Assembly (NCBI GenBank): GCA_934183305.1
Contig: CAKPSF010000002.1
Coordinates: forward strand, 145,395-209,394
DNA length: 64,000 nucleotides
Direction of reading: 5' to 3'
Source of the DNA: an uncultured Clostridia bacterium
Lineage (GTDB): Bacteria > Bacillota > Clostridia > TANB77 > CAG-508
Within the stretch, counting starts at the first letter, position 1. Each line of letters starts with the position of its first letter. The notes under the pieces were generated by a model. The model saw only the letters and a program-made list of their open reading frames with translations. It was not told the DNA's origin and ran no database searches. Positions 547 through 43,395 of the stretch are shown one piece after another. The position numbers and the translations under genes were made by a program.

Positions 547-2823
547 TTAATATCTATTTTTCATTTGTTCCAAAGTATTATTCATGTTAGGAGAAAATTT
601 ATTGTTTGATGAATAATCTCCCATTGGTTTGTATTTATTTCCAATTAACGGATACACCATATTAGCAACTTCTTTTAATTTAGCATTAAAAAATTTTGAA
701 TATCCATTTATTGAAATTTCGCAATCCATAACTCCTTCTAGATATCTAGAACACGCATCTTCATCAAAAGGAACAGAGCAGTATTTTACACTATCTTTAT
801 TGAATAATTCAGTCATAAACGACATAGCCGGATCATTATAGAATGCTAGTCCACCAATTATTGCTTTTGGTGTTAATCCTCTAACTTTCATTTCTTTATT
901 TATAATAATTTTAATTTTTTCAGGTCTTAAAATATCTTTAGCTTTTAGATCTCTCAAGAATGCTGTCATTGGTTGAATTGTAAGAATATCCATAGTTTGA
1001 ACAACGTACAATTCTTGTGCAACTCCAAAATACTCAACTGGCGAATTAAAATCACAATCCATCAAAACGACTGAATAATTTTGAGTTAAAGTTGATATTA
1101 TTCCGTCAACCTCTTCTAATGGCAATCTGTCTCCCGGAAGTGCTGTATATACATCTAAATATTTGTCTACATTTATTCCGTTTGTGATTCCGCTTCTTAG
1201 TTTTTTTATCGATTCAAATGCTATATTTCTTAAGTTTTCCTCATTCTTTGTATAAATATAATATGAATTTCTATTTGTAGTCAAATCTAAAATAGCGGTT
1301 TTAATGCCCATTGAAGATAAACATTTAGCAACATTGTTTACCAAAAATGATGTTCCATTTTTTGTTGTTCCAACAAAGCTAACTATTTTTTTATCTTTAG
1401 ACAATACTCCGGACATATTCGTTATTGAGTCATAATTAATATTAGAATTATAATTTGTAACTGCATTATTATACTTATCTTTTTGAACTTCCGCTCTAGT
1501 TGATTGATTTGATAGATTTCCAACATTGTCAAATCCAGGTAATACCATATCCTCATCATCGCTTATTGCATCAAATCCTGGTAATGTTTGTGTTTCATCA
1601 ACTTTATCAAAACCTGGTAAAACATTTTCGTTTTGCTCTTCATTATCAAATCCTGGTAATATTGAATCTAGATTATTTTCTACTTCGTCAAAACCCGGTA
1701 GAACAGTCTCTTCCTCTGGCTCTGTTTCAGTGGCTGTAACTTTTTTAGGTCTGCCTCTTCCTCTTTTTACCGTATTTACATTAGGTTGTTCTGTTTCAAC
1801 AACAACCTTCTTAGGTCTGCCTCTTCCTCTCTTTACTGCTGTCGCCTCTGGTTCTTCTTTTAATATAGGTTCATTTATTTCAGTTTCATTATCGACTTCT
1901 TCGAATCCAGGTAAAGTTGTTTCTTTTTCAATTTGTTTTGGTTCAACTTTTTCTTCTATTTTACTTTTTATTGTTCCAGTCATTTTTTTAGTTGCTACTT
2001 TTTTTATTGCCGTAGGAACAATTACTGGTTTTACCGGTCTATTAGAAGTAGAATTATTTAAAAATCCAATTTTCAGTCCTTCTTCTTCTTTTTGTTTTTT
2101 CATAGCATTAATTGTTGATGGTGCATCTCCAAATGTCATAACAGATTGATACTTAGGTGATCTTTCTTCTAGTACCGCTTTAACATTTAGAGGTAGAAAC
2201 TTAGTTATTATTCTTAATTGTGCATCATTATATTGTGCTGCTATGTTATTAAAACTCTCTATATATCTATCTTCATCTTTTCCAAGTCTTCTATAATGGT
2301 TTAAAATATTTTTTATTTCTGCTTCACTAACATTTTCTTCGCTTTCGCTTTTGTAATTTACTTCATCAGATTCTATTTTATAATAAATCTTAGCCTCTTT
2401 TTTACTACGAGGTTTATTTAATAATGTACATACATTAGCAGTACTTCTATCTTGCCCTAGCAGTGCATTATATATTCCTATTCCAAATAATTTTACTAAT
2501 ATTGGTTCAGACTTTGTTCTTCTATCTGTTGCAATTAATATAATTGGTATATCTTCTCCATTTATTCCTGTTGCTTCGTCACTTATATTATCTAATTTTT
2601 CAAATAGAAATTTATCTATTGCATCATAATTATTGTTAGCAAATGGTTCTAAGTCCTCGCTAATAACAATTCTATCATATGTTTTATCTCTTTGTAATTC
2701 TTTAACAATTGCATTGAAATAGTACATATTTTTATATGAAATTATTTCTTTATAATCTTTTTGATATTTTTTAACTATTTGTGTTGATATATTCTCGTTA
2801 CTTACAGCAAACAGAACTTTCAT
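547..2823 (-). CDS. ParA/MinD-superfamily (CpaE/TadZ-like) ATPase with receiver-like N-domain, two AT-hooks and six LPGF(D/E) repeats
   Basis: 758-aa ORF with GGAGGGG RBS. C-terminal IVSFVGTTKNGTSFLVNN...VVLMDCDF resembles the deviant Walker A/B of MinD/ParA/CpaE. The central region has KRGRGRPKK x2 and LPGF[DE] x6. Confidence 0.7.
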   Translation of the reverse strand: MKVLFAVSNENISTQIVKKYQKDYKEIISYKNMYYFNAIVKELQRDKTYDRIVISEDLEPFANNNYDAIDKFLFEKLDNISDEATGINGEDIPIILIATDRRTKSEPILVKLFGIGIYNALLGQDRSTANVCTLLNKPRSKKEAKIYYKIESDEVNYKSESEENVSEAEIKNILNHYRRLGKDEDRYIESFNNIAAQYNDAQLRIITKFLPLNVKAVLEERSPKYQSVMTFGDAPSTINAMKKQKEEEGLKIGFLNNSTSNRPVKPVIVPTAIKKVATKKMTGTIKSKIEEKVEPKQIEKETTLPGFEEVDNETEINEPILKEEPEATAVKRGRGRPKKVVVETEQPNVNTVKRGRGRPKKVTATETEPEEETVLPGFDEVENNLDSILPGFDNEEQNENVLPGFDKVDETQTLPGFDAISDDEDMVLPGFDNVGNLSNQSTRAEVQKDKYNNAVTNYNSNINYDSITNMSGVLSKDKKIVSFVGTTKNGTSFLVNNVAKCLSSMGIKTAILDLTTNRNSYYIYTKNEENLRNIAFESIKKLRSGITNGINVDKYLDVYTALPGDRLPLEEVDGIISTLTQNYSVVLMDCDFNSPVEYFGVAQELYVVQTMDILTIQPMTAFLRDLKAKDILRPEKIKIIINKEMKVRGLTPKAIIGGLAFYNDPAMSFMTELFNKDSVKYCSVPFDEDACSRYLEGVMDCEISINGYSKFFNAKLKEVANMVYPLIGNKYKPMGDYSSNNKFSPNMNNTLEQMKNRY
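1528..1914 (-). repeat. in-frame coding repeats: six LPGF(D/E) units plus a 66-nt duplicated AT-hook unit
   Basis: The motif ccaggtaa (rc TTACCTGG = LPG) recurs six times. ttaggtctgcctcttcctct occurs at 1745-1764 and 1811-1830 (rc encodes RGRGRPKK). Confidence 0.85.
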
Positions 2824-2826
2824 TTG

Positions 2827-3228
2827 TTAACCCCTCCAACTTTTTACAACTATTGCAAATATAAGTGGTAATACCTGAGCAATTACAAATATTGTAATAA
2901 ACCCAATCATTAAAATTAAACCTCTATCTCTTACATCTATTTTTCTTACACCTAAAATATATTGATAAATTGCAGCAATTGCAACTCCAATAAAGCAACA
3001 TGGTATGCTGTATATTCTAACTTTATTTAGCATATATGCTGTAAATCCGTAGCTTTCAGAGCCATATGCTTCTGTGTAATCTTTTATTTCTTTTAATTCT
3101 TTATCTTTAATTTCTACAAGTTGACTACTTGTTTTATTGTCCATTATTTGAGTAGTGCTAGTTGCATGAACTGAATAAACAGAAAACAAGCAAATTAATA
3201 TAAAAAATATTGCTATAACTTTTTTCAT
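2827..3228 (-). CDS. small membrane protein with signal peptide (unknown function)
   Basis: 133-aa ORF with GGGGAGAAAG RBS. Has an N-terminal signal-like helix and C-terminal TM helices. Lies 3 nt upstream of the ParA-like gene. Confidence 0.7.
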   Translation of the reverse strand: MKKVIAIFFILICLFSVYSVHATSTTQIMDNKTSSQLVEIKDKELKEIKDYTEAYGSESYGFTAYMLNKVRIYSIPCCFIGVAIAAIYQYILGVRKIDVRDRGLILMIGFITIFVIAQVLPLIFAIVVKSWRG

Positions 3229-3381: not shown

Positions 3382-4644
3382 CTATAATCTGTTATATAAA
3401 TATTTCATCCAAGTATAAATACTATTGGCCCATTTTTTATCTGTTGCATATTTTTTATTTACTCCGGCTAATGTAGCGCCATTATAGTATTTTCCAGTGG
3501 CTACTTCTCCACCATATATGCTTGTTCCTTTAGGATTTAAATAATGTTTTACTAACACTCTAGCAATCATATCTATACTTGCTGAGCATCCATCGTAAGA
3601 ATAAGCACTTGAATACGCACTATTGTCATATGCTCCGTATCCGAATAAATTTTTCTTATTTGTAGCTATCTTAGAAGTTCCCCATGCACTTTCGTGAATA
3701 CCTATTGCCGCAACAAATACTCCATTTATTCCATATGATTGTTCTATATAATAGAAATATTTTGCATTTTCTTTAAATATACCATTTTTATCTTTTGATT
3801 CGTTTTCAAATATCTTTTCAAATTGTTCTAATGTTAATCCACTTGGTTTGCTTAAGTCCATACTTTTACTAAGTTTCTTTAATAATTCTTCTTTAGAATA
3901 TTTTTCATTATTATTGTTTCCTTTAATTTCCACGTTTGGTACTATGTATGTTACACAATCTGATTCTACCCATCCATAATATGTATCATATTTAACGTAA
4001 TACCAGCTTCCATTTTTCTTTTCTATCTTTAGTTTCGAATTTTGATTAATTTTTATTATAACCTCTGCATTTTTATCATTTTCCGTCCTAATATCTAATT
4101 CATATGGTGTTGCATATACTGTATCTCCTATTTTAATTTTATGTTTATTATAATATTTAGACGTACCAACTTCAACAATTCTTTTTATAGAAGGTTTTAA
4201 GATCTTTCTTCCTATCTGTTCATCTTGTATTAACTCTTCGCCTTTATATTGTTTTTTTATAATTAATTCTTGTTTTCCATCTTGTCCTTGTTGTAATACT
4301 TGAATTGTACCTTTAGGAAGTTTACTATTATTTTGATATTCTGTTTCATATTCAAGTTCAACATCCATAGTTTCAATTACTTCTCTTATTTCATCATTTT
4401 TATTTTGATTAATAATATCATTAATATCTATTGTTCCTTCATATTCTTGGTCTAGCCATTCAATTTCTTGATTTTCTGTTTTATAGCTATCAGCAACAAT
4501 TATTTCCTTTTTTATTCTAGATTTAATTACAAATCTGCATATTAATACAACTATAAATAAAGTAGCAATTATGCTTCCAATTATTATTAATATATTTCTT
4601 TCACTATGGTCATTTATCTTTATTTTATTATTATTATTTTTCAT
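3382..4644 (-). CDS. membrane-anchored peptidoglycan hydrolase: G5 + SH3b + GH73 N-acetylglucosaminidase domains
   Basis: KLPKGTIQVLQQGQDGKQ...IVEVGT (G5-like), GSWYYVKYDTYYGWV (SH3b-like), GIHESAWGTSKIA...LFGYGAYD (glucosaminidase). ATG at 4644 has a GGTGA RBS; the track start at 4689 is the TTG of the promoter -35. Confidence 0.8.
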   Translation of the reverse strand: MKNNNNKIKINDHSERNILIIIGSIIATLFIVVLICRFVIKSRIKKEIIVADSYKTENQEIEWLDQEYEGTIDINDIINQNKNDEIREVIETMDVELEYETEYQNNSKLPKGTIQVLQQGQDGKQELIIKKQYKGEELIQDEQIGRKILKPSIKRIVEVGTSKYYNKHKIKIGDTVYATPYELDIRTENDKNAEVIIKINQNSKLKIEKKNGSWYYVKYDTYYGWVESDCVTYIVPNVEIKGNNNNEKYSKEELLKKLSKSMDLSKPSGLTLEQFEKIFENESKDKNGIFKENAKYFYYIEQSYGINGVFVAAIGIHESAWGTSKIATNKKNLFGYGAYDNSAYSSAYSYDGCSASIDMIARVLVKHYLNPKGTSIYGGEVATGKYYNGATLAGVNKKYATDKKWANSIYTWMKYLYNRL

Positions 4645-4660
4645 AAGTTTCACCAATATT

Positions 4661-4689
4661 ATTTTAAATATAAAAAGTTTTTTTGTCAA
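4661..4689 (-). promoter_or_regulatory. sigma-A-type promoter (TTGACA-17-TAAAAT)
   Basis: rc of 4684-4689 is TTGACA and rc of 4661-4666 is TAAAAT, with a 17-nt spacer. Confidence 0.6.
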
Positions 4690-4753
4690 TTATTTAATAA
4701 ATATTGATTTTAATAAAATATTATAATAATATTATGATTATAAGGAGAAAATT

Positions 4754-5590
4754 ATGAGAAGAACAAATTTACGTAAGAAAAAAAGAGTAATGATACAAGA
4801 ATCAAATAAAAAGAGTTTAAAAATCCTCTTTGCATTAACTGCAATTATAATTTTAGCATTAATTGTTTATGTGTTTTTTATTCAAAACATATTCATAAAA
4901 AGCAACTTTGAAAAAGATAATATCGAGATTGCAAGCTTAAATGAAAATATACCTTTTTCTATTAAAAAAATAATACTATTCAGTAGTGCTACTGCAAATG
5001 CTGAAAATGTTAATCAATCTTTATTAAATTTAGATATATCACAATATTGTGATATTGGAATTTATTTAAATAATTCAGATATAGACAACAATATAATTCA
5101 AGCCTTATACATAGACAACATATCAATTTCAACCCCCGAGCTTGGTAGCCCTTGTTTATATATGAAAAGAGTCACAGACTTAGGAAAATGTAGTTTTGAC
5201 GAGAAAAATATTATAAATCAGAAACTAGATTTTAATATAATAGATATTAATTCAGATATTAATTACGATAATCTAGAAATGTATAGCAATGCTTCCACTC
5301 CAATCTCAATTGGCTTTTACAATAGAAGTATAAAAAAAGATTATTTAACAGATTTAAGAGAAATTGTATATAACGGTACATTATTAAAGAAAGCAGCCAT
5401 ACCAGTAAAAAGCCTAGAATGTAACGTTTCATTTACAATTAATATTATAACTACTTCAAACGAACATTATATTTGTAACATTAGTTTTGATGTTCCTCTT
5501 CAAGACGGGGAAGGCTCAATTGCAGACACAGGTTACGCAACAATGGAAATCAACACAGCAAACTCATATAAGTTTTTAAGGATAAAATAA
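4754..5590 (+). CDS. membrane-anchored hypothetical protein
   Basis: 278-aa ORF with AAGGAG RBS, one N-terminal TM helix and its own terminator. Confidence 0.75.
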   Translation: MRRTNLRKKKRVMIQESNKKSLKILFALTAIIILALIVYVFFIQNIFIKSNFEKDNIEIASLNENIPFSIKKIILFSSATANAENVNQSLLNLDISQYCDIGIYLNNSDIDNNIIQALYIDNISISTPELGSPCLYMKRVTDLGKCSFDEKNIINQKLDFNIIDINSDINYDNLEMYSNASTPISIGFYNRSIKKDYLTDLREIVYNGTLLKKAAIPVKSLECNVSFTINIITTSNEHYICNISFDVPLQDGEGSIADTGYATMEINTANSYKFLRIK

Positions 5591-5597
5591 ATTAAAG

Positions 5598-5627
5598 ACC
5601 AGGAACGAAACTCCTGGTATTTTTTTA
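5598..5627 (+). terminator. intrinsic terminator
   Basis: ACCAGGA-acgaaac-TCCTGGT followed by ATTTTTTT. Confidence 0.85.
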
Positions 5628-7171: not shown

Positions 7172-7200
7172 ATTATACCTCTTTTCATTTATTATGTCAA
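7172..7200 (-). promoter_or_regulatory. consensus sigma-A promoter (TTGACA-17-TATAAT)
   Basis: rc of 7195-7200 is TTGACA and rc of 7172-7177 is TATAAT. Confidence 0.7.
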
Positions 7201-9204: not shown

Positions 9205-9309
9205 ATTAGCGGAATGCGAAAATAAATAAGCATAACAATTTAACTTTTATTTGCCCCAATAACAACTTCCCGTTTATTGAGTCTTTACTATTTATTTTCT
9301 ACTCTAATT
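9205..9309 (-). promoter_or_regulatory. THF (folT-motif) riboswitch aptamer
   Basis: Minus strand reads AAUUAGAGUAGAAAAUAAAUAG...ACGGGAAGU...CUUAUUUAUUUUCGCAUUCCGCUAAU. P1 is AUUAG/CUAAU. P2 is a 12-bp stem, GAAAAUAAAUAG/CUUAUUUAUUUUC. The GAGUAG, GGGAxG and GCAUyCCGCU blocks match the THF-I consensus as I recall it. A downstream UUUCUUUU/AAAAGAAA hairpin abuts the SD. Confidence 0.7.
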
Positions 9310-23660: not shown

Positions 23661-23737
23661 TGGTAGCGAAGGGGAGATTCGAACTCTCGACCTGCCGGGT
23701 ATGAACCGGATGCTCTAGCCAACTGAGCTACTTCGCC
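23661..23737 (-). tRNA. tRNA-Met (CAT); could be Ile2 if lysidinylated
   Basis: rc GGCGAAGTAGCTCAGTTGGCTAGAGCATCCGGTTCATACCCGG...CTTCGCTACCA. The 3' 45 nt (23661-23705) is att repeat copy 2. Confidence 0.9.
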
Positions 23738-23755
23738 ATATAAAAGACAAATACT

Positions 23756-23784
23756 ATTATAATGGTTTTATATGTATTTGTCAA
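23756..23784 (-). promoter_or_regulatory. consensus promoter of tRNA-Met (TTGACA-17-TATAAT)
   Basis: rc of 23779-23784 is TTGACA and rc of 23756-23761 is TATAAT. Confidence 0.75.
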
Positions 23785-28155: not shown

Positions 28156-28241
28156 AGTCTCTCTCCTTATATAATATACATAAGATACATATATTCAAAT
28201 ATTTACTAATATGTATCTTATTGATTCATTTTTACCTATAA

Positions 28242-28421
28242 TCAGGAAGGAATAAATCTCTTTAATACTAATACTTTACTGTATGCATTCCTTAAATTTA
28301 ATAACTGATTTAATAATAACGCATCTTTTCCTCTTGCAATGTAGAAACTTCCAGCATTAACTAATACTATGCTACCTTTACTTTTTATTTGTAACAATCC
28401 AAGCATTTTACTAAATCCCAT
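28242..28421 (-). CDS. 59-aa MutS-domain-I-like mini protein
   Basis: AAAGGAGG RBS 7 nt before the ATG at 28421. IVLVNAGSFYIARGKDALLLNQLLNL parallels the MutS N-terminal segment [29 protein letters not shown]. Confidence 0.5.
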   Translation of the reverse strand: MGFSKMLGLLQIKSKGSIVLVNAGSFYIARGKDALLLNQLLNLRNAYSKVLVLKRFIPS

Positions 28422-31185: not shown

Positions 31186-31214
31186 ATTATAGCATACATT
31201 TTTAAAATTGTCAA
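31186..31214 (-). promoter_or_regulatory. consensus promoter (TTGACA-17-TATAAT) for the GH73 gene
   Basis: rc of 31209-31214 is TTGACA and rc of 31186-31191 is TATAAT. Confidence 0.7.
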
Positions 31215-39738: not shown

Positions 39739-40971
39739 TTAGCCTATTTTTGCAATATAGTGATTCTTTTTTCCTCTTTTTATAATAAGATATATATCGT
39801 TAATTAAATCGTCTTCTGTTATTGTCTTTTCTATGTCTGTAACCTTTTTTCCTTTTATTTCAATACTATTATTTGAAATAAATTCTCTTGCTTCTCTTTT
39901 ACTTGATGCAGCATTCATTTGTATAAGTACATCAATAATATTTTGCCCCAATTCTACTGTTTTTATTTCTTTACCTTTAAATGCTTCTTCCAATTCATCT
40001 TTGCTTAGATTTTCAAATTCACCTTTAAATAGACTTTCAGTTATTCTTACTGCTTTGTTATATGATTCTTCACTATGAATAAATTTTATTACTTCTTCTG
40101 CTAAACGTTTTTGTGCAATTCTTAAATGTGGTGCTTCATTATGTTCTTTCATAATGCTTTCTATTTCTTCTTTACTTAAAAAAGTATATTTCTTCAAATA
40201 TTCTTCCATCATTACATCTTCAAAGTTTAATATGTATTGATACATTTCATAACTTGAGGTTTTATTTTCATCAAGCCACAAGGCATTTCCGTAGCTTTTT
40301 CCTAGTTTTTTACCTGTTGAATCAACAATTAAAGGAACTGAGAATGCATATACTTCTTCGTTATTAAGTTTTCTTATTATTTCTATTCCTGTTGTCAAAT
40401 TTCCCCATTGATCTGAACCACCAAATTGAAGTGTAGCACCATAATTGTCATGAATATATTTAAAGTCAAATCCTTGTATTAACATATATGAAAATTCAGC
40501 ATATGAAATTCCCACTTCCATTTGTCTTTTTACTAGGTCTTTATTAATCATATATGCAACATTTACATATTTTCCAACATCTCTTAAAAAATCTATGTAA
40601 TTATAGTTTTTGAACCAATCGTAATTATTAACTACTAATGTGTCTTCTCCAAATAGTTTTTTCATTTGAGCTTGAATTTTTGTAAAATTACTTTCTATAA
40701 CTTTTATATCTGCTTTTTCTCTTTCACCTGTTCCTCTTGGGTCTCCTACACGTCCAGTTGCCCCACCAACTAATATTATTGGTTTATGTCCTGCTCTTCT
40801 TAATCTTTCCGCAACTAAAAATGTTGGAAATTGTCCTATATGAAGGCTTTCTGCTGTTGGGTCCGCTCCTATATAAAAAGTCATACCACCATTATTTAAT
40901 TTTTCTTCTAATTCTGGAGATGTAACATCTTTTATTAACCCTCTCCATTTTAAATCTTCATACAAATTCAT
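39739..40971 (-). CDS. tyrS: tyrosine--tRNA ligase
   Basis: HIGH-type AESLHIGQF, KMSKS-type KLGKS and a C-terminal S4 domain. AAAGGAGG RBS before the ATG at 40971. Confidence 0.95.
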   Translation of the reverse strand: MNLYEDLKWRGLIKDVTSPELEEKLNNGGMTFYIGADPTAESLHIGQFPTFLVAERLRRAGHKPIILVGGATGRVGDPRGTGEREKADIKVIESNFTKIQAQMKKLFGEDTLVVNNYDWFKNYNYIDFLRDVGKYVNVAYMINKDLVKRQMEVGISYAEFSYMLIQGFDFKYIHDNYGATLQFGGSDQWGNLTTGIEIIRKLNNEEVYAFSVPLIVDSTGKKLGKSYGNALWLDENKTSSYEMYQYILNFEDVMMEEYLKKYTFLSKEEIESIMKEHNEAPHLRIAQKRLAEEVIKFIHSEESYNKAVRITESLFKGEFENLSKDELEEAFKGKEIKTVELGQNIIDVLIQMNAASSKREAREFISNNSIEIKGKKVTDIEKTITEDDLINDIYLIIKRGKKNHYIAKIG

Positions 40972-40990
40972 TTTTATTCCTCCTTTTAAC

Positions 40991-41220
40991 AAAATAGCTA
41001 GTTCATCCTTATTAAAGGACGAGACTAGCTACTCGTGGTACCACCTTTATTCATAATACTTTTATAGTATTACCTTATTTTTCTTTACTTACGTTTGTTA
41101 CTATAAGAATTGTAATTCATAATTTAATGCTTAATAATTTTCACCAACCATTATCTCTCTTTACAAGCCACTTTTAAATTACTACTAGGTTTCTTTTTAA
41201 AACATAACAAAATTCAATTG
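40991..41220 (-). promoter_or_regulatory. T-box riboswitch leader (Tyr)
   Basis: T-box sequence AAAGGUGGUACCACG (rc of 41031-41045). Terminator UAGCUAGU...ACUAGCUAUUUU. AGAGAGA box. Candidate UAC specifier in GAAUUACAAU. Confidence 0.85.
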
Positions 41221-41260: not shown

Positions 41261-42376
41261 CTATACAAATTCTTCCCATACTATATTTGCAAGGTCTAGT
41301 CCTTTGTTTGTTAATTTTATATAATCGCCATTAATTAAAATTAGTTTTTCTTTTGAGAGCTTATTTAATTCATTTCTAAATAAGAATATTGGGTTTTCTC
41401 CAAATTTATTTTTAAATTCTTGAATACTAACTCCTTTTATTTTCCTAAGCCCTAGTAGCATATATTCTTTTTGCATATCAGCTATTTCTTGTTCTTCATG
41501 AACTACTTTTATAAGTTTTTCAAATTTGTTTTTGTTATCTGCCTCATATGAATATCTTGTTCCATTTATATATGAATGTGCTGCTAAACCAAATCCTAAA
41601 TATTCTTTTTGATTCCAACAGTCTAGATTATGTTTTGATTCATATCCAGTTTTTGCAAAGTTTGATATTTCATAGTGTATATATCCATTTTGTTCTAATG
41701 TATTTTTTACATACCAATACATATTTCTTTCTAATTCTTCACTTGGTAGCTCAATTTCTTTGTTTATATATTTTTCGTAAAGTGGTGTATTTTCTTCTAA
41801 TATTAGTGAGTATACACTGATATGTTCTGGATTTAATTTTATTATTTTTTCTAAGTTTTCTTTTATATTTTGTATTCTCTGATTTGGAAGTCCAATCATT
41901 AAATCTACATTTATATTTTTAAATCCTAATTCTCTTGCCAAATTATATGTATCCAAAAATTCTTCATAAGTATGGATTCTGCCTATTTGTTTTAATAAAT
42001 TGTTATGTGTTTCTTGAAGTCCTATACTTAATCTATTAATACCTGCCTTTTTATAGTCTTCTAATTTTTTCTCTGTAACCGTACCTGGATTTAATTCAAT
42101 TGTTATTTCTGCATTTTCAATTTTGTAAGAATTATTATTAATAGTATCTAGCAATTCTAAAATATATTTAGAATTAATATAAGAAGGTGTACCACCTCCT
42201 ATATAAATCGTTTTTATATTGTATTTATCTTTTTGTAATTCAGTTTCTATTTCTTTTTTTAAAGTTTCAATATATTGCCTAATATATTCATCTTTATTGC
42301 AGTAAGATATAAAGTCGCAATAATCACATTTTTTCCTACAAAATGGAATGTGCACATAAATTCCTATATTTTTCAT
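41261..42376 (-). CDS. hemW: radical SAM heme chaperone HemW (HemN-like)
   Basis: YVHIPFCRKKCDYCDF CxxxCxxC motif. 371 aa. Confidence 0.85.
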   Translation of the reverse strand: MKNIGIYVHIPFCRKKCDYCDFISYCNKDEYIRQYIETLKKEIETELQKDKYNIKTIYIGGGTPSYINSKYILELLDTINNNSYKIENAEITIELNPGTVTEKKLEDYKKAGINRLSIGLQETHNNLLKQIGRIHTYEEFLDTYNLARELGFKNINVDLMIGLPNQRIQNIKENLEKIIKLNPEHISVYSLILEENTPLYEKYINKEIELPSEELERNMYWYVKNTLEQNGYIHYEISNFAKTGYESKHNLDCWNQKEYLGFGLAAHSYINGTRYSYEADNKNKFEKLIKVVHEEQEIADMQKEYMLLGLRKIKGVSIQEFKNKFGENPIFLFRNELNKLSKEKLILINGDYIKLTNKGLDLANIVWEEFV

Positions 42377-42396
42377 TTTATTTTATCCTTTAGTAA

Positions 42397-42425
42397 TTGA
42401 CAAATTAAATTTATTTTTATATAAT
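42397..42425 (+). promoter_or_regulatory. perfect consensus sigma-A promoter (TTGACA-17-TATAAT) with no plus-strand ORF downstream
   Basis: TTGACA at 42397-42402, 17-nt spacer, TATAAT at 42420-42425. Confidence 0.65.
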
Positions 42426-42430
42426 AATTA

Positions 42431-42512
42431 TAGGAAATGAAAAACCACAAATGTGGTTTACCGGTTATGTAAAAAACACATCTAACCTGCAAGTTACAGA
42501 TGTGTTTTTTTA
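42431..42512 (+). ncRNA. candidate ~80-nt sRNA (type I antitoxin-like), ends approximate
   Basis: Promoter, then hairpin AAACCACAaaTGTGGTTT, then terminator ACACATCT...AGATGTGT plus T7. Convergent with and overlapping the 3' end of the 36-aa peptide mRNA. Confidence 0.5.
42471..42510. terminator. bidirectional intrinsic terminator shared by the sRNA and the peptide gene
   Basis: A6-CACATCT-(14 nt)-AGATGTG-T6. Confidence 0.85.
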
Positions 42513-42516
42513 TTCT

Positions 42517-42627
42517 TTATTTGCTTAAAATTATAAATAATATAATTAAGGCAAATACTATAATAGTTTCAGCAATCAAGCTAAATAAAAGCAAGTACAC
42601 TATTTCTAACAAAAAAGATTCTATCAT
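42517..42627 (-). CDS. 36-aa hydrophobic peptide (type I toxin-like)
   Basis: GGAGGTGG RBS. MIESFLLEIVYLLLFSLIAETIIVFALIILFIILSK. Below the ORF-track cutoff. Confidence 0.55.
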   Translation of the reverse strand: MIESFLLEIVYLLLFSLIAETIIVFALIILFIILSK

Positions 42628-42710
42628 AGCACCACCTCCAATCTCACAATTTATATTGTGGAATAAAAGTGGTAAAGCACATCTGCTTATTCTCATCTCC
42701 TATGTGTTAT

Positions 42711-42739
42711 AATATACTACACTTTTTACAAAAAAGCAA
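42711..42739 (-). promoter_or_regulatory. promoter of the peptide gene (TTGCTT-17-TATATT), ~77-nt 5' UTR
   Basis: rc of 42734-42739 is TTGCTT and rc of 42711-42716 is TATATT. Confidence 0.45.
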
Positions 42740-42756
42740 GTATTTTGTTTTAATTT

Positions 42757-43395
42757 TTAAGTTAAATCTTTTGCTATTGTTGAAATTTTTTTTAGTCTAT
42801 GGTTAACTCCTGATTTTCCTATTGGTTCTTTTAATAATTTTCCTAGTTCTACTAATGACAAGTCTGGGTTTTCAATTCTTAAATTTGCTATTTCTTGCAA
42901 GTTTTCTGGCAAAGCTGCAAACTTTCCTTTAGCTTTTATAAGTTTTATATCTTCTATTTGTTTTACTGCTGCATTTATTGTTTTGTTTAAGTTGGCTGTT
43001 TCGCAGTTTACTAATCTATTTATATCGTTTCTTTTTTCTTTTATTACTCGTACTTCTTCAAATTTTAAAACTGTATTATTGGCTCCAATTAACGCAAGAA
43101 ATTGTGATATTTCTTCTCCATCTTTTAGATATAGCATATAGTTATTTTCTTTTTTTATTATTCTTGGATGGATATAAAAGTTTTCAAGTAGTTTTTGCAT
43201 TTCTTCTGCTTTCTTTTTAGTTTTAAACATTATTTGCAAGTGGTATTTTTTATTAGGGTCATTCATAGAACCAGATTTAATAAAGGCTTCTCTTATACAC
43301 AATCTTGCAATTTGTTCATCTTGTTTCATTTGTGCATTAGTATCCCACATTTTTAATGATAATAATTCTTCTTTTAAATCACTGGCAAATGACAT
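42757..43395 (-). CDS. whiA: DNA-binding protein WhiA, short form (212 aa)
   Basis: MSFASDLKEEL..., NRLVNCETANLNKTINAA and KSGVNHRLKKI HTH. Lacks ~100 residues of the first LAGLIDADG-like lobe compared with ~315-aa WhiA. Confidence 0.8.
   Translation of the reverse strand: MSFASDLKEELLSLKMWDTNAQMKQDEQIARLCIREAFIKSGSMNDPNKKYHLQIMFKTKKKAEEMQKLLENFYIHPRIIKKENNYMLYLKDGEEISQFLALIGANNTVLKFEEVRVIKEKRNDINRLVNCETANLNKTINAAVKQIEDIKLIKAKGKFAALPENLQEIANLRIENPDLSLVELGKLLKEPIGKSGVNHRLKKISTIAKDLT

Follow-up and report, generated by a model that had tools for sequence, protein, structure and literature searches.

A candidate type I toxin-antitoxin family with a par/Fst-like layout in uncultured gut Clostridia

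The 64-kb stretch of DNA analysed here (the window), from an uncultured Clostridia bacterium, contains a compact module in which a gene for a short hydrophobic peptide, on the minus strand, converges with a small RNA (sRNA) gene on the plus strand, the two meeting at a common terminator. We consider it probable (roughly 0.7, judged from sequence comparison) that the module represents a new type I toxin-antitoxin (TA) family of par/Fst-like layout, in which the sRNA would pair with the 3' terminator of the peptide mRNA and the mRNA would be silent by itself. An earlier interpretation made from the letters of this DNA (the sequence-only reading) had already described the module as type I TA-like. 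That description is strengthened by what follows: the parts are conserved together in more than 80 loci, the RNA helices covary, the Shine-Dalgarno (SD) sequence is predicted to be sequestered, and the module behaves as an insertion and is subject to decay. CAG-type gut Clostridia are common in human and animal guts; to our knowledge, type I TA systems are badly under-annotated generally and essentially unknown in these uncultured, low-GC (CAG-type) lineages. Region 42100-43000 of the window was re-read on both strands for the present analysis, and coordinates of the features are collected in Table 1.

Results and Discussion

A module that recurs at unrelated sites

Further family members were collected from a species-representative genome collection by means of an exact 19-nt pattern from the mRNA leader, ATAGGARATGAGAATAAGC, which is shared by the window and one related locus, L014 (loci are referred to by L numbers throughout). 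The pattern matches at least 119 genome stretches at unrelated sites. Nearly all of the matches listed are metagenome-assembled genomes (MAGs) of uncultured Clostridia, deriving from human, rabbit, chicken, goat, deer and mouse guts. Two matches in Peribacillus (L096 and L137), in which the 19-mer is not followed by a module, appear to be due to chance.

In 87 of the 97 modules with enough flanking DNA, all parts are present in a fixed order: an SD sequence (GGAGGTGGTG or GGAGGTGAGG), an open reading frame (ORF) of 33-40 amino acids, a bidirectional terminator and, on the opposite strand, a near-perfect TTGACA-17-TATAAT promoter with the RNA start ATAGGAAATGGAGAAACCACAAACGTGGTTTGCC. Since the search imposed the leader 19-mer only, the conservation of all the other parts is independent evidence, and the arrangement is far beyond chance because it recurs as a whole in more than 80 loci of other genomes. 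The family is tied to the wider lineage of the window, since at least ten of the MAGs that supplied related hemW loci (see below) also supplied module loci. Several MAGs have two loci, and L090 bears three tandem, diverged modules.

About a tenth of the copies are decayed. Internal deletions have taken the SD sequence and most of the ORF from L110, L199 and L100, while L103 and L142 contain frameshifts; the sRNA gene is intact in L110, L199, L103 and L142. A different fate is seen in L140 (module ~2814-2832, minus strand), where the start of the leader is joined directly to the inverted start of the sRNA (…CAGATGTGGATTTGTCATTTCCTAT…). Here it looks as if recombination between the inverted-repeat arms described below had deleted both ORF and terminator.

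A leader predicted to hide the Shine-Dalgarno sequence

The minus-strand features of the sequence-only reading, namely a TTGCTT-17-TATATT promoter, a 5' untranslated region (UTR) of ~77 nt, a ribosome-binding site and the ORF, were found where it had placed them, the UTR measuring 76 nt. Across the family the mRNA promoter follows the consensus cTTG..N17..TATA.TA and stands at a constant distance from the start of the leader. Its information content is lower than that of the sRNA promoter, the former being the weaker of the two and the latter near-consensus.

The predicted mRNA, of ~236 nt, folds better than its shuffled versions (z-score -4.9). The minimum free energy (MFE) and centroid structures of the window mRNA agree in pairing ACCACUUUUA (42673-42664) with UGGAGGUGGU, a small hairpin being enclosed between them. 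The pairing probability of the SD sequence was 0.92, compared to 0.52 in controls with shuffled upstream sequence, and was higher than the control in 68 of 69 leaders. In every one of the 69 MFE structures the SD sequence is paired, and this is achieved through 41 distinct variants of the anti-SD/SD helix, among them CCAC(U/C)UU:(A/G)AGGUGG, CCUCC:GGAGG and CACC:GGUG, with a compensatory CCGCC:GGCGG in L138. For the hairpin enclosed by the helix, at least eight unrelated stems are found across the family. As the SD sequence is paired within the leader family-wide, the primary mRNA of the candidate toxin is predicted to be translationally closed by itself, with the anti-SD strand covering the SD sequence; the mRNAs of par and of other type I toxins are closed likewise.

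Two leaders, those of L119 and L191, contain ~70 extra nt (GGAGTAGAGCCCACGAAGAAC...GTAATAAGCAG) bordered on both sides by an ATAAGC(A/G)G repeat; something has been inserted into, or duplicated within, these leaders.

The predicted opposing small RNA

The sRNA promoter matches the consensus at 12 of 12 positions. Four such perfect TTGACA-17-TATAAT sites occur in the 64 kb where 0.08 would be expected, and none of 100 shuffled sequences reached four. The other three, all on the minus strand, lie at 7172-7200, 23756-23784 and 31186-31214, the second being just upstream of a tRNA gene (23664-23737). The sequence-only reading had noted that the promoter drives no credible ORF, and this holds: the single 11-codon frame (ATGAAAAACCAC...TAA), in which GGAA abuts the ATG, was rejected as a gene since neither the ATG nor the frame is conserved (variants ATAGAG and ATTGAG; 1-nt indels in the loop). 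The lack of conservation leads us to regard the sRNA as non-coding.

The sRNA has a predicted folding energy of -21.6 kcal/mol (z-score -3.5 against shuffles). A covariance model, R1, comprising two helices and built from 18 close family members, scores the window sRNA at 88.6 bits, its only strong match in the window; applied to 100 sources (L081-L179 and the window), it locates 81 sites. A weak match at 5542-5626 was dismissed as an ordinary terminator behind an ORF. In the R1 alignment (78 distinct rows) 93% of cells are paired, compared to 77% in shuffles and 35-52% with slid partners. Both sides have changed in 15 of the 18 pairs, with compensatory changes in all 11 pairs of the terminator and in four of the seven pairs of hairpin 1; none of 500 shuffles reached the observed values. 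RNAalifold predicted zero pairs on a plain MAFFT alignment of 70 sRNAs. This failure is attributed to misalignment of the subfamilies, for which reason the covariance-model alignment was used instead.

No Rfam family matches the module at gathering thresholds, either in the window or in 18 family loci, nor is there any antitoxin family at E <= 10. A match to RAGATH-12 (RF03149) at 42419-42492 was discounted, scoring 18.2 bits (E 2.4) against a gathering threshold of 75 and vanishing in a narrower search. Sub-threshold matches to azaaromatic, AbsR25, mir-142 and SurA in the region reflect the terminator hairpin only.

A shared terminator and two RNAs that begin alike

The bidirectional terminator at 42471-42510, on which the sequence-only reading had the two transcripts converge, was confirmed by inverted-repeat analysis, its 13-nt arms being 100% complementary. 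The terminator is the ~40-nt region of perfect complementarity between sRNA and mRNA, a cis-antisense relationship defined here at the level of sequence. With its 3' end predicted at 42511 and the stop codon of the ORF at 42517-42519, the sRNA does not overlap the ORF. The apical loop of the terminator, read in the mRNA sense, has the form C-U(2-4)-G in 54 of 69 loops, compared to 13% in composition-matched random sequences, and does so despite differing stems. It is reminiscent of YUNR, the loop motif at which pairing between RNA I and RNA II is nucleated in par (PMC7472228).

One arm of the terminator recurs as a direct repeat in the mRNA leader. From this it had been proposed that the sRNA gains a second, distal complementarity and the mRNA a potential 5'-3' lock. 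The repeat is real in the window, where the leader segment GCAGAUGUG could form 9 bp with CACAUCUGU in the terminator 5' arm of the same mRNA (-14.1 kcal/mol) or, alternatively, 7 bp with the sRNA arm. Family-wide, however, the own arm fits better: the repeat segment of the leader yields a mean of -15.8 kcal/mol with the mRNA's own terminator 5' arm and -10.9 kcal/mol with the sRNA arm, the specificity of the former pairing by subfamily being partial only. The stronger own-arm pairing favours a possible 5'-3' lock or refolding element over a second sRNA contact. Such 5'-3' pairing is absent from the MFE structure and is therefore treated as a hypothesis.

A second likeness concerns the 5' ends. 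On the DNA the first 33 nt of sRNA and mRNA form inverted repeats, ~76% alike, so that the two RNAs begin alike. The pattern ATAGGAAATG.AGAA...GTGGTTTGCC is found in both RNAs family-wide, and the leader itself is a weak match to R1 (12.2 bits). Furthermore, from subfamily to subfamily the segment GUGGUUUGCC varies in step in the two RNAs. It forms the 3' arm of sRNA hairpin 1, so that the 5' arm of that hairpin, along with an SD-like GGAG, matches by complementarity a stretch of leader immediately before the anti-SD strand and extending into it; the duplex has a cognate mean of -10.6 kcal/mol against -5.8 kcal/mol for shuffled arms.

The strong consensus promoter of the sRNA, and a conserved single-stranded 5' end and hairpin that go beyond the needs of terminator overlap, would also suit an independent trans-acting sRNA which merely shares its terminator with an unrelated small ORF. 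We regard this as highly improbable: the sRNA co-occurs with the peptide gene in nearly every locus, in fixed arrangement and spacing, and its 5' region co-varies across subfamilies with the leader of the adjacent mRNA.

The latter observation, along with the likeness of the first 33 nt, allows a more ambitious proposal within the TA interpretation, given that GUGGUUUGCC co-varies in the same sense in both RNAs. The antitoxin sRNA might be an inverted paralogue of the toxin leader, the sRNA 5' arm and the terminator arm might compete for the leader segment beside the anti-SD strand, this three-way exchange, and not plain 3' antisense pairing, might determine whether the SD sequence opens, and the whole ~375-bp unit might move between chromosomal sites without a recognisable mobility gene. 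We put this forward tentatively and think it doubtful; if true, the three-way arm-exchange logic would be one not described for type I systems.

The peptide and the case for toxicity

The window peptide is almost wholly hydrophobic and, as is the case for type I toxins, it is small (<60 amino acids) with one predicted transmembrane helix. Of 97 full-length modules, 87 have an SD sequence followed by a homologous hydrophobic ORF of 33-40 amino acids, and 77 different peptides were obtained in all. Several subfamilies can be distinguished: MIEAVLLEIIYLLLF..ILSK (the window type), MVETILL..LLHRQ, MVEIQTLIAT..ILSKSK, MIEFLMFLII..QWTNKE and MVKVILFF..NWVDKQLHK. Differences in ORF length result from in-frame indels. 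The second codon position is the least changed, with 991 changes compared to 1982 and 2146 at the others (307 within-group pairs, which are non-independent). The frame is open in all 85 unique modules, these having been selected for possession of the ORF, compared to 0 and 28 of 85 for the other forward frames. Two longer frames were considered and rejected. A 59-amino-acid extension from an upstream ATG is in frame in part of one subfamily only and meets stop codons in others, and a 70-amino-acid plus-strand ORF (42500-42712) begins inside the terminator, lacks an SD sequence and is merely antisense to the peptide gene.

Scans of the peptides against Pfam, NCBIfam (E <= 10) and PADLOC yielded no toxin family match. 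PHROGs contained no match to the peptide, and a profile search of PDB sequences found no chain at E <= 10. An exhaustive phmmer search of 1.84 billion cluster representatives returned only 12 peptide clusters, all of them without names.

Type I toxins usually have a charged C-terminal tail (PMC6563280). The window peptide ends in ...ILSK, with a single Lys, and carries three glutamates; C-termini in other subfamilies are SKQK, SKSK, HRQ, WTNKE and NWVDKQLHK. The near absence of the usual charged tail from the window peptide and the lack of any toxin family match would be compatible with the main rival explanation, a non-toxic small membrane protein, for example a transporter modulator or stress protein, whose expression is adjusted through a cis-antisense sRNA together with a leader that sequesters the SD sequence; nor is the architecture alone any proof of toxicity. 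Nevertheless, we consider such a protein unlikely. The patchy, insertion-like distribution of the module over unrelated loci is typical of type I TA systems and unusual for housekeeping small proteins. Equally TA-typical are the tandem arrays of diverged copies (as in L090), the repeated loss of the ORF with retention of the sRNA, and the tight double repression by SD sequestration and an antisense RNA with a consensus promoter.

Further points weigh against a type I TA family. With almost no charged tail and three glutamates, the window peptide is atypical for a type I toxin, and no homology of the module to a known family of toxins or antitoxins was detected. The two transcripts, like the positions of their ends, are predicted. 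Conservation of the 19 leader nt used as search query is by construction, and the alignment on which covariation was scored was fitted to R1. As to sRNA-mRNA contacts, those outside the terminator are short and do not cover the translation start; in the window itself the sRNA 5' arm pairs only weakly with the leader (-3.2 kcal/mol); and pairing of the sRNA 5' half with the whole leader is not discriminating, at -18.4 kcal/mol for cognate and -17.9 kcal/mol for non-cognate combinations.

Insertion between whiA and hemW

The sequence-only reading located the module between whiA and hemW, and this was borne out when the coordinates were re-read. A search with the hemW protein produced 80 loci, all from MAGs of uncultured gut Clostridia or 'Clostridium sp. 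CAG' assemblies. Among these, L001, L002 and L003 are the nearest to the window (respectively 94, 70 and 69% identical to it in hemW and 96, 82 and 78% in whiA); in all three the whiA stop codon is 1-15 nt from the hemW ATG, and the two genes also adjoin in nearly all the other related loci. The contiguity of whiA and hemW in relatives indicates that segment 42377-42756 (~375 bp) was gained in the lineage of the window, splitting the gene pair; on this comparative evidence it is an insertion into a formerly contiguous whiA-hemW pair. L014 is the only one of the 80 loci to have a module nearby, at a different site, between a rubrerythrin-like gene and prmC. The description of the module as lying outside any obvious mobile element is correct for its surroundings, although the behaviour of the module is that of an inserted, mobile unit. 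It shows that such elements can split conserved operons, here whiA-hemW.

Modules often adjoin tRNA or tmRNA genes (L085, L090, L110, L125, L146 and L199). In L090 (4593-6208) two tRNAs at 4593-4740 are followed by the three tandem modules, in L085 a tmRNA (2179-2540) lies beside the module, and in L110 and L199 there is tRNA-like sequence just past the sRNA promoter. This proximity suggests a preferred type of insertion site.

No mobility gene, such as a transposase, accompanies the module, and no clear target-site duplication is present at its AT-rich insertion junctions. True copies are absent from the 2.9 million viral contigs of IMG/VR searched with the leader 19-mer; the seven matches obtained there were rejected as chance, consisting of unrelated sequence mostly in or between phage ORFs and without a module. 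Collections of plasmid and phage records likewise contained no copy.

These data bear on another explanation, that of a selfish or mobile cassette, a unit of two promoters around a bidirectional terminator, which is inserted into operons and acts mainly on its neighbours, insulating or re-driving hemW for example, and in which the peptide is incidental. Such a cassette would account for the interruption of the formerly contiguous gene pair, for the 33-nt inverted-repeat ends, which lie within the transcribed core, for the frequent position of copies beside tRNA or tmRNA genes and for the failure to find a separate hemW promoter downstream of the terminator. It is nonetheless very unlikely, as an incidental ORF would not be expected to show the conservation, accompanied by compensatory changes, that is seen for the peptide ORF, its SD sequence and the anti-SD helix. 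Moreover, both promoters face inward rather than towards the neighbours, and the absence of a transposase, a clear target-site duplication and any plasmid, phage or IMG/VR copy argues against it.

Regarding hemW, the bidirectional terminator now separates it from whiA in the window. Between the terminator and the hemW ATG (42377-42470, minus strand) no convincing sigma-70-type promoter was found, the sole candidate, TTGTCA-17-TAAAAT, being rejected as it overlaps the ATG. Transcription of hemW by read-through of the terminator is a possibility.

Two further observations concern the neighbouring genes. The whiA-hemW spacer of L008 (2746-3000) contains a different insert of ~255 nt, composed of repeated TTGCCTTAAC-like units and without similarity to the module. 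The whiA homologue encodes 212 amino acids in the window and its closest relatives and 286 in L014 (2142-3002), and in several other relatives WhiA has extra upstream sequence, its alignment with the window's protein beginning only near residue 20-35 of the latter. WhiA appears to have a shortened N-terminal region in the lineage of the window.

Table 1. Features of the module and its surroundings, in window coordinates
Feature	Position	Strand	Remarks
hemW homologue	41261-42376	minus	name given by the sequence-only reading from the translation, without family scan
Inserted segment holding the whole module	42377..42756		between whiA stop and hemW start
sRNA promoter, perfect TTGACA-17-TATAAT	42397..42425	plus	12/12; strongly conserved across the family
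Candidate antitoxin sRNA, ~82 nt	42430..42511	plus	5' single-stranded AUAGGAAAUGAA, hairpin 1, spacer, terminator hairpin
Inverted-repeat arm 1, sRNA 5' end	42430..42462		pairs with 42671-42703
sRNA hairpin 1	42442-42459	plus	AAACCAC-AAAT-GTGGTTT
Bidirectional intrinsic terminator	42471..42510	both	A6, 13-nt arms, T7; common to both RNAs
Direct repeat, terminator-arm copy	42473-42484		AAAACACATCTA
Candidate toxin ORF, 36-amino-acid hydrophobic peptide	42517..42627	minus	MIESFLLEIVYLLLFSLIAETIIVFALIILFIILSK; stop included, TAA at 42519-42517
Putative 5' leader, 76 nt	42628..42703	minus	start ~42703; conserved 5' end ATAGGAGATGAGAATAAGC
SD sequence	42639-42632	minus	GGAGGTGG; ORF ATG at 42627
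Variable leader hairpin	42661-42643	minus	
Anti-SD strand	42673-42664	minus	ACCACTTTTA; in leader
Small leader hairpin	within 42628..42703	minus	AAGCA-GATG-TGCTT
Inverted-repeat arm 2, mRNA leader 5' end	42671..42703		
Direct repeat, leader copy	42674..42685		AAAGCACATCTG
Putative toxin-mRNA promoter, TTGCTT-17-TATATT	42711..42739	minus	-35 at 42739-42734, -10 at 42716-42711; read from sequence
whiA homologue	42757-43395	minus	name given by the sequence-only reading from the translation, without family scan

Other RNA features of the window

Elsewhere in the window, on the minus strand, Rfam identifies an RT-14 RNA (RF02921) at 28180-28321 (83.1 bits against a gathering threshold of 48.1) and a THF riboswitch aptamer at 9205-9308 (58.1 bits against 36). 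A T-box leader at 41012-41201, also on the minus strand, lies upstream of ORF 39739-40992, a putative tyrosyl-tRNA synthetase gene as judged by its translation. Its score of 66.4 bits is below the Rfam gathering threshold of 93, with an E-value of 1.9e-13 and full coverage of the model; it is probably a divergent but real T-box.

A possible mode of action and its implications

Taking the module to be a type I TA system, the following scheme may be proposed. The peptide would be a membrane-active toxin, whose primary transcript would be translationally inert through SD sequestration. An abundant sRNA would anneal to the mRNA 3' end over the ~40 nt of the terminator, with the conserved CUU(U)G loop as the probable site of a first loop-loop contact; the mRNA would then be degraded in a duplex-dependent manner or else be tied up in a stable, silent complex. 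Two candidate secondary contacts could tune the response: that of the sRNA hairpin-1 5' arm with the leader segment GUGGUUUGCC, and that of the leader with the mRNA's own terminator arm. A fall in the supply of sRNA would activate the mRNA, allowing the peptide to damage the membrane.

Abundant as it is (at least 119 genome stretches), the family has gone unannotated: its peptide clusters are without names and neither Pfam nor Rfam has a model for it. A covariance model for it is now available, and its peptides fall into clear subfamilies. Should these peptides prove toxic, they would constitute a new toxin family accompanied by a new antitoxin RNA family, the modules would serve as markers of recent genome insertion in these bacteria, and the ~375-bp unit would offer a compact system for the study of a lethal peptide controlled jointly by SD sequestration, by a terminator common to both RNAs and by RNA 5' ends that are paralogous.

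Comparison with known type I systems

In hok/sok and in the Helicobacter aapA1/IsoA1 system, fold-back inhibition by long-distance 5'-3' pairing keeps the full-length toxin mRNA inert. The present module resembles them in that leader nt ~15-30 are complementary to the mRNA's own 3' terminator arm. It differs in that this pairing has to compete with a very stable terminator hairpin and does not appear in the MFE structure.

With the Bacillus subtilis systems TxpA/RatA, BsrG/SR4, BsrE/SR5 and YonT/SR6 the module has in common a Gram-positive setting, convergent genes, overlap at the 3' end and a hydrophobic toxin of fewer than 60 amino acids. In txpA-ratA and bsrG-SR4, however, the antisense RNA extends into the 3' portion of the ORF (PMC8594479), whereas here the overlap ends 7 nt short of the stop codon. 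The sequence-only reading had assigned the module the layout of par/fst, txpA-ratA and bsrG-SR4 alike; of these parallels, that with par/Fst-RNA II is apt, as is that with SprA1, while those with txpA-ratA and bsrG-SR4 fail on the position of the overlap. The B. subtilis loci are mostly in prophage regions (PMC6563280), whereas the new family was not found in phage or viral collections. Pfam and NCBIfam scans gave no match to the TxpA and BsrG families.

The Clostridioides difficile pairs CD2517.1-RCd8, CD0956.2-RCd10 and their relatives are likewise clostridial, with convergent overlapping genes and small membrane toxins (PMC6563280). The C. difficile toxins have 34-53 amino acids and lysine-rich C-termini and are encoded beside CRISPR arrays or in prophages (PMC6563280). 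None of these toxin and location traits is seen here, the two groups being set apart by their description only.

The closest parallel is with par (Fst/RNA I-RNA II of Enterococcus faecalis pAD1) and SprA1/SprA1as, in which convergent promoters are again combined with a shared bidirectional terminator as the overlap. The par/Fst system has convergent promoters, a bidirectional terminator, an SD-sequestering 5' stem-loop and a loop motif (PMC7472228), and the sRNAs of both Fst/RNAII and SprA1 stay clear of the ORF (PMC8594479). Correspondingly, the sRNA of the module is situated 3' of the ORF without overlapping it (stop codon at 42517-42519, terminator ending at 42510), an intramolecular 5' stem-loop is predicted to sequester the SD sequence, a conserved pyrimidine-U motif occupies the terminator loop of the toxin RNA, and the peptide is small with a single helix.

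Differences from par are found in both peptide and RNA. The module has no match to the Pfam Fst model, to Fst/PepA1 chains in the PDB or to any Rfam model. The window peptide lacks both the Trp plus charged-tail signature and the P/D/S/TxxxG motif; Trp and a charged tail are present only in the WTNKE and NWVDKQLHK subfamilies, where no P/D/S/TxxxG was seen on reading the alignment, no motif scan having been run. Complementarity to start codon and SD sequence of the DRa/DRb type is not observed: the additional complementarity of the module falls in the leader and takes in the anti-SD strand and sequence before it, the best non-terminator duplexes lying in leader nt ~15-37 and not at the SD sequence or AUG. 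Similarly, the direct repeat of the window (42473/42674) is in the 5' UTR and not at the translation start. As for the 5' end of the window mRNA, the two predicted structures disagree, since it is paired in the MFE but not in the centroid structure. As a last difference, the sRNA of the module is longer and has its own conserved 5' hairpin, and both RNAs begin alike by virtue of the 33-nt inverted repeats. With no profile match, no Fst signature in the window's subfamily and no repeat pairing to the translation start, membership of the Fst family is unsupported. Given the strong par/Fst-like layout, we read the module as belonging to a new family that would work like par.

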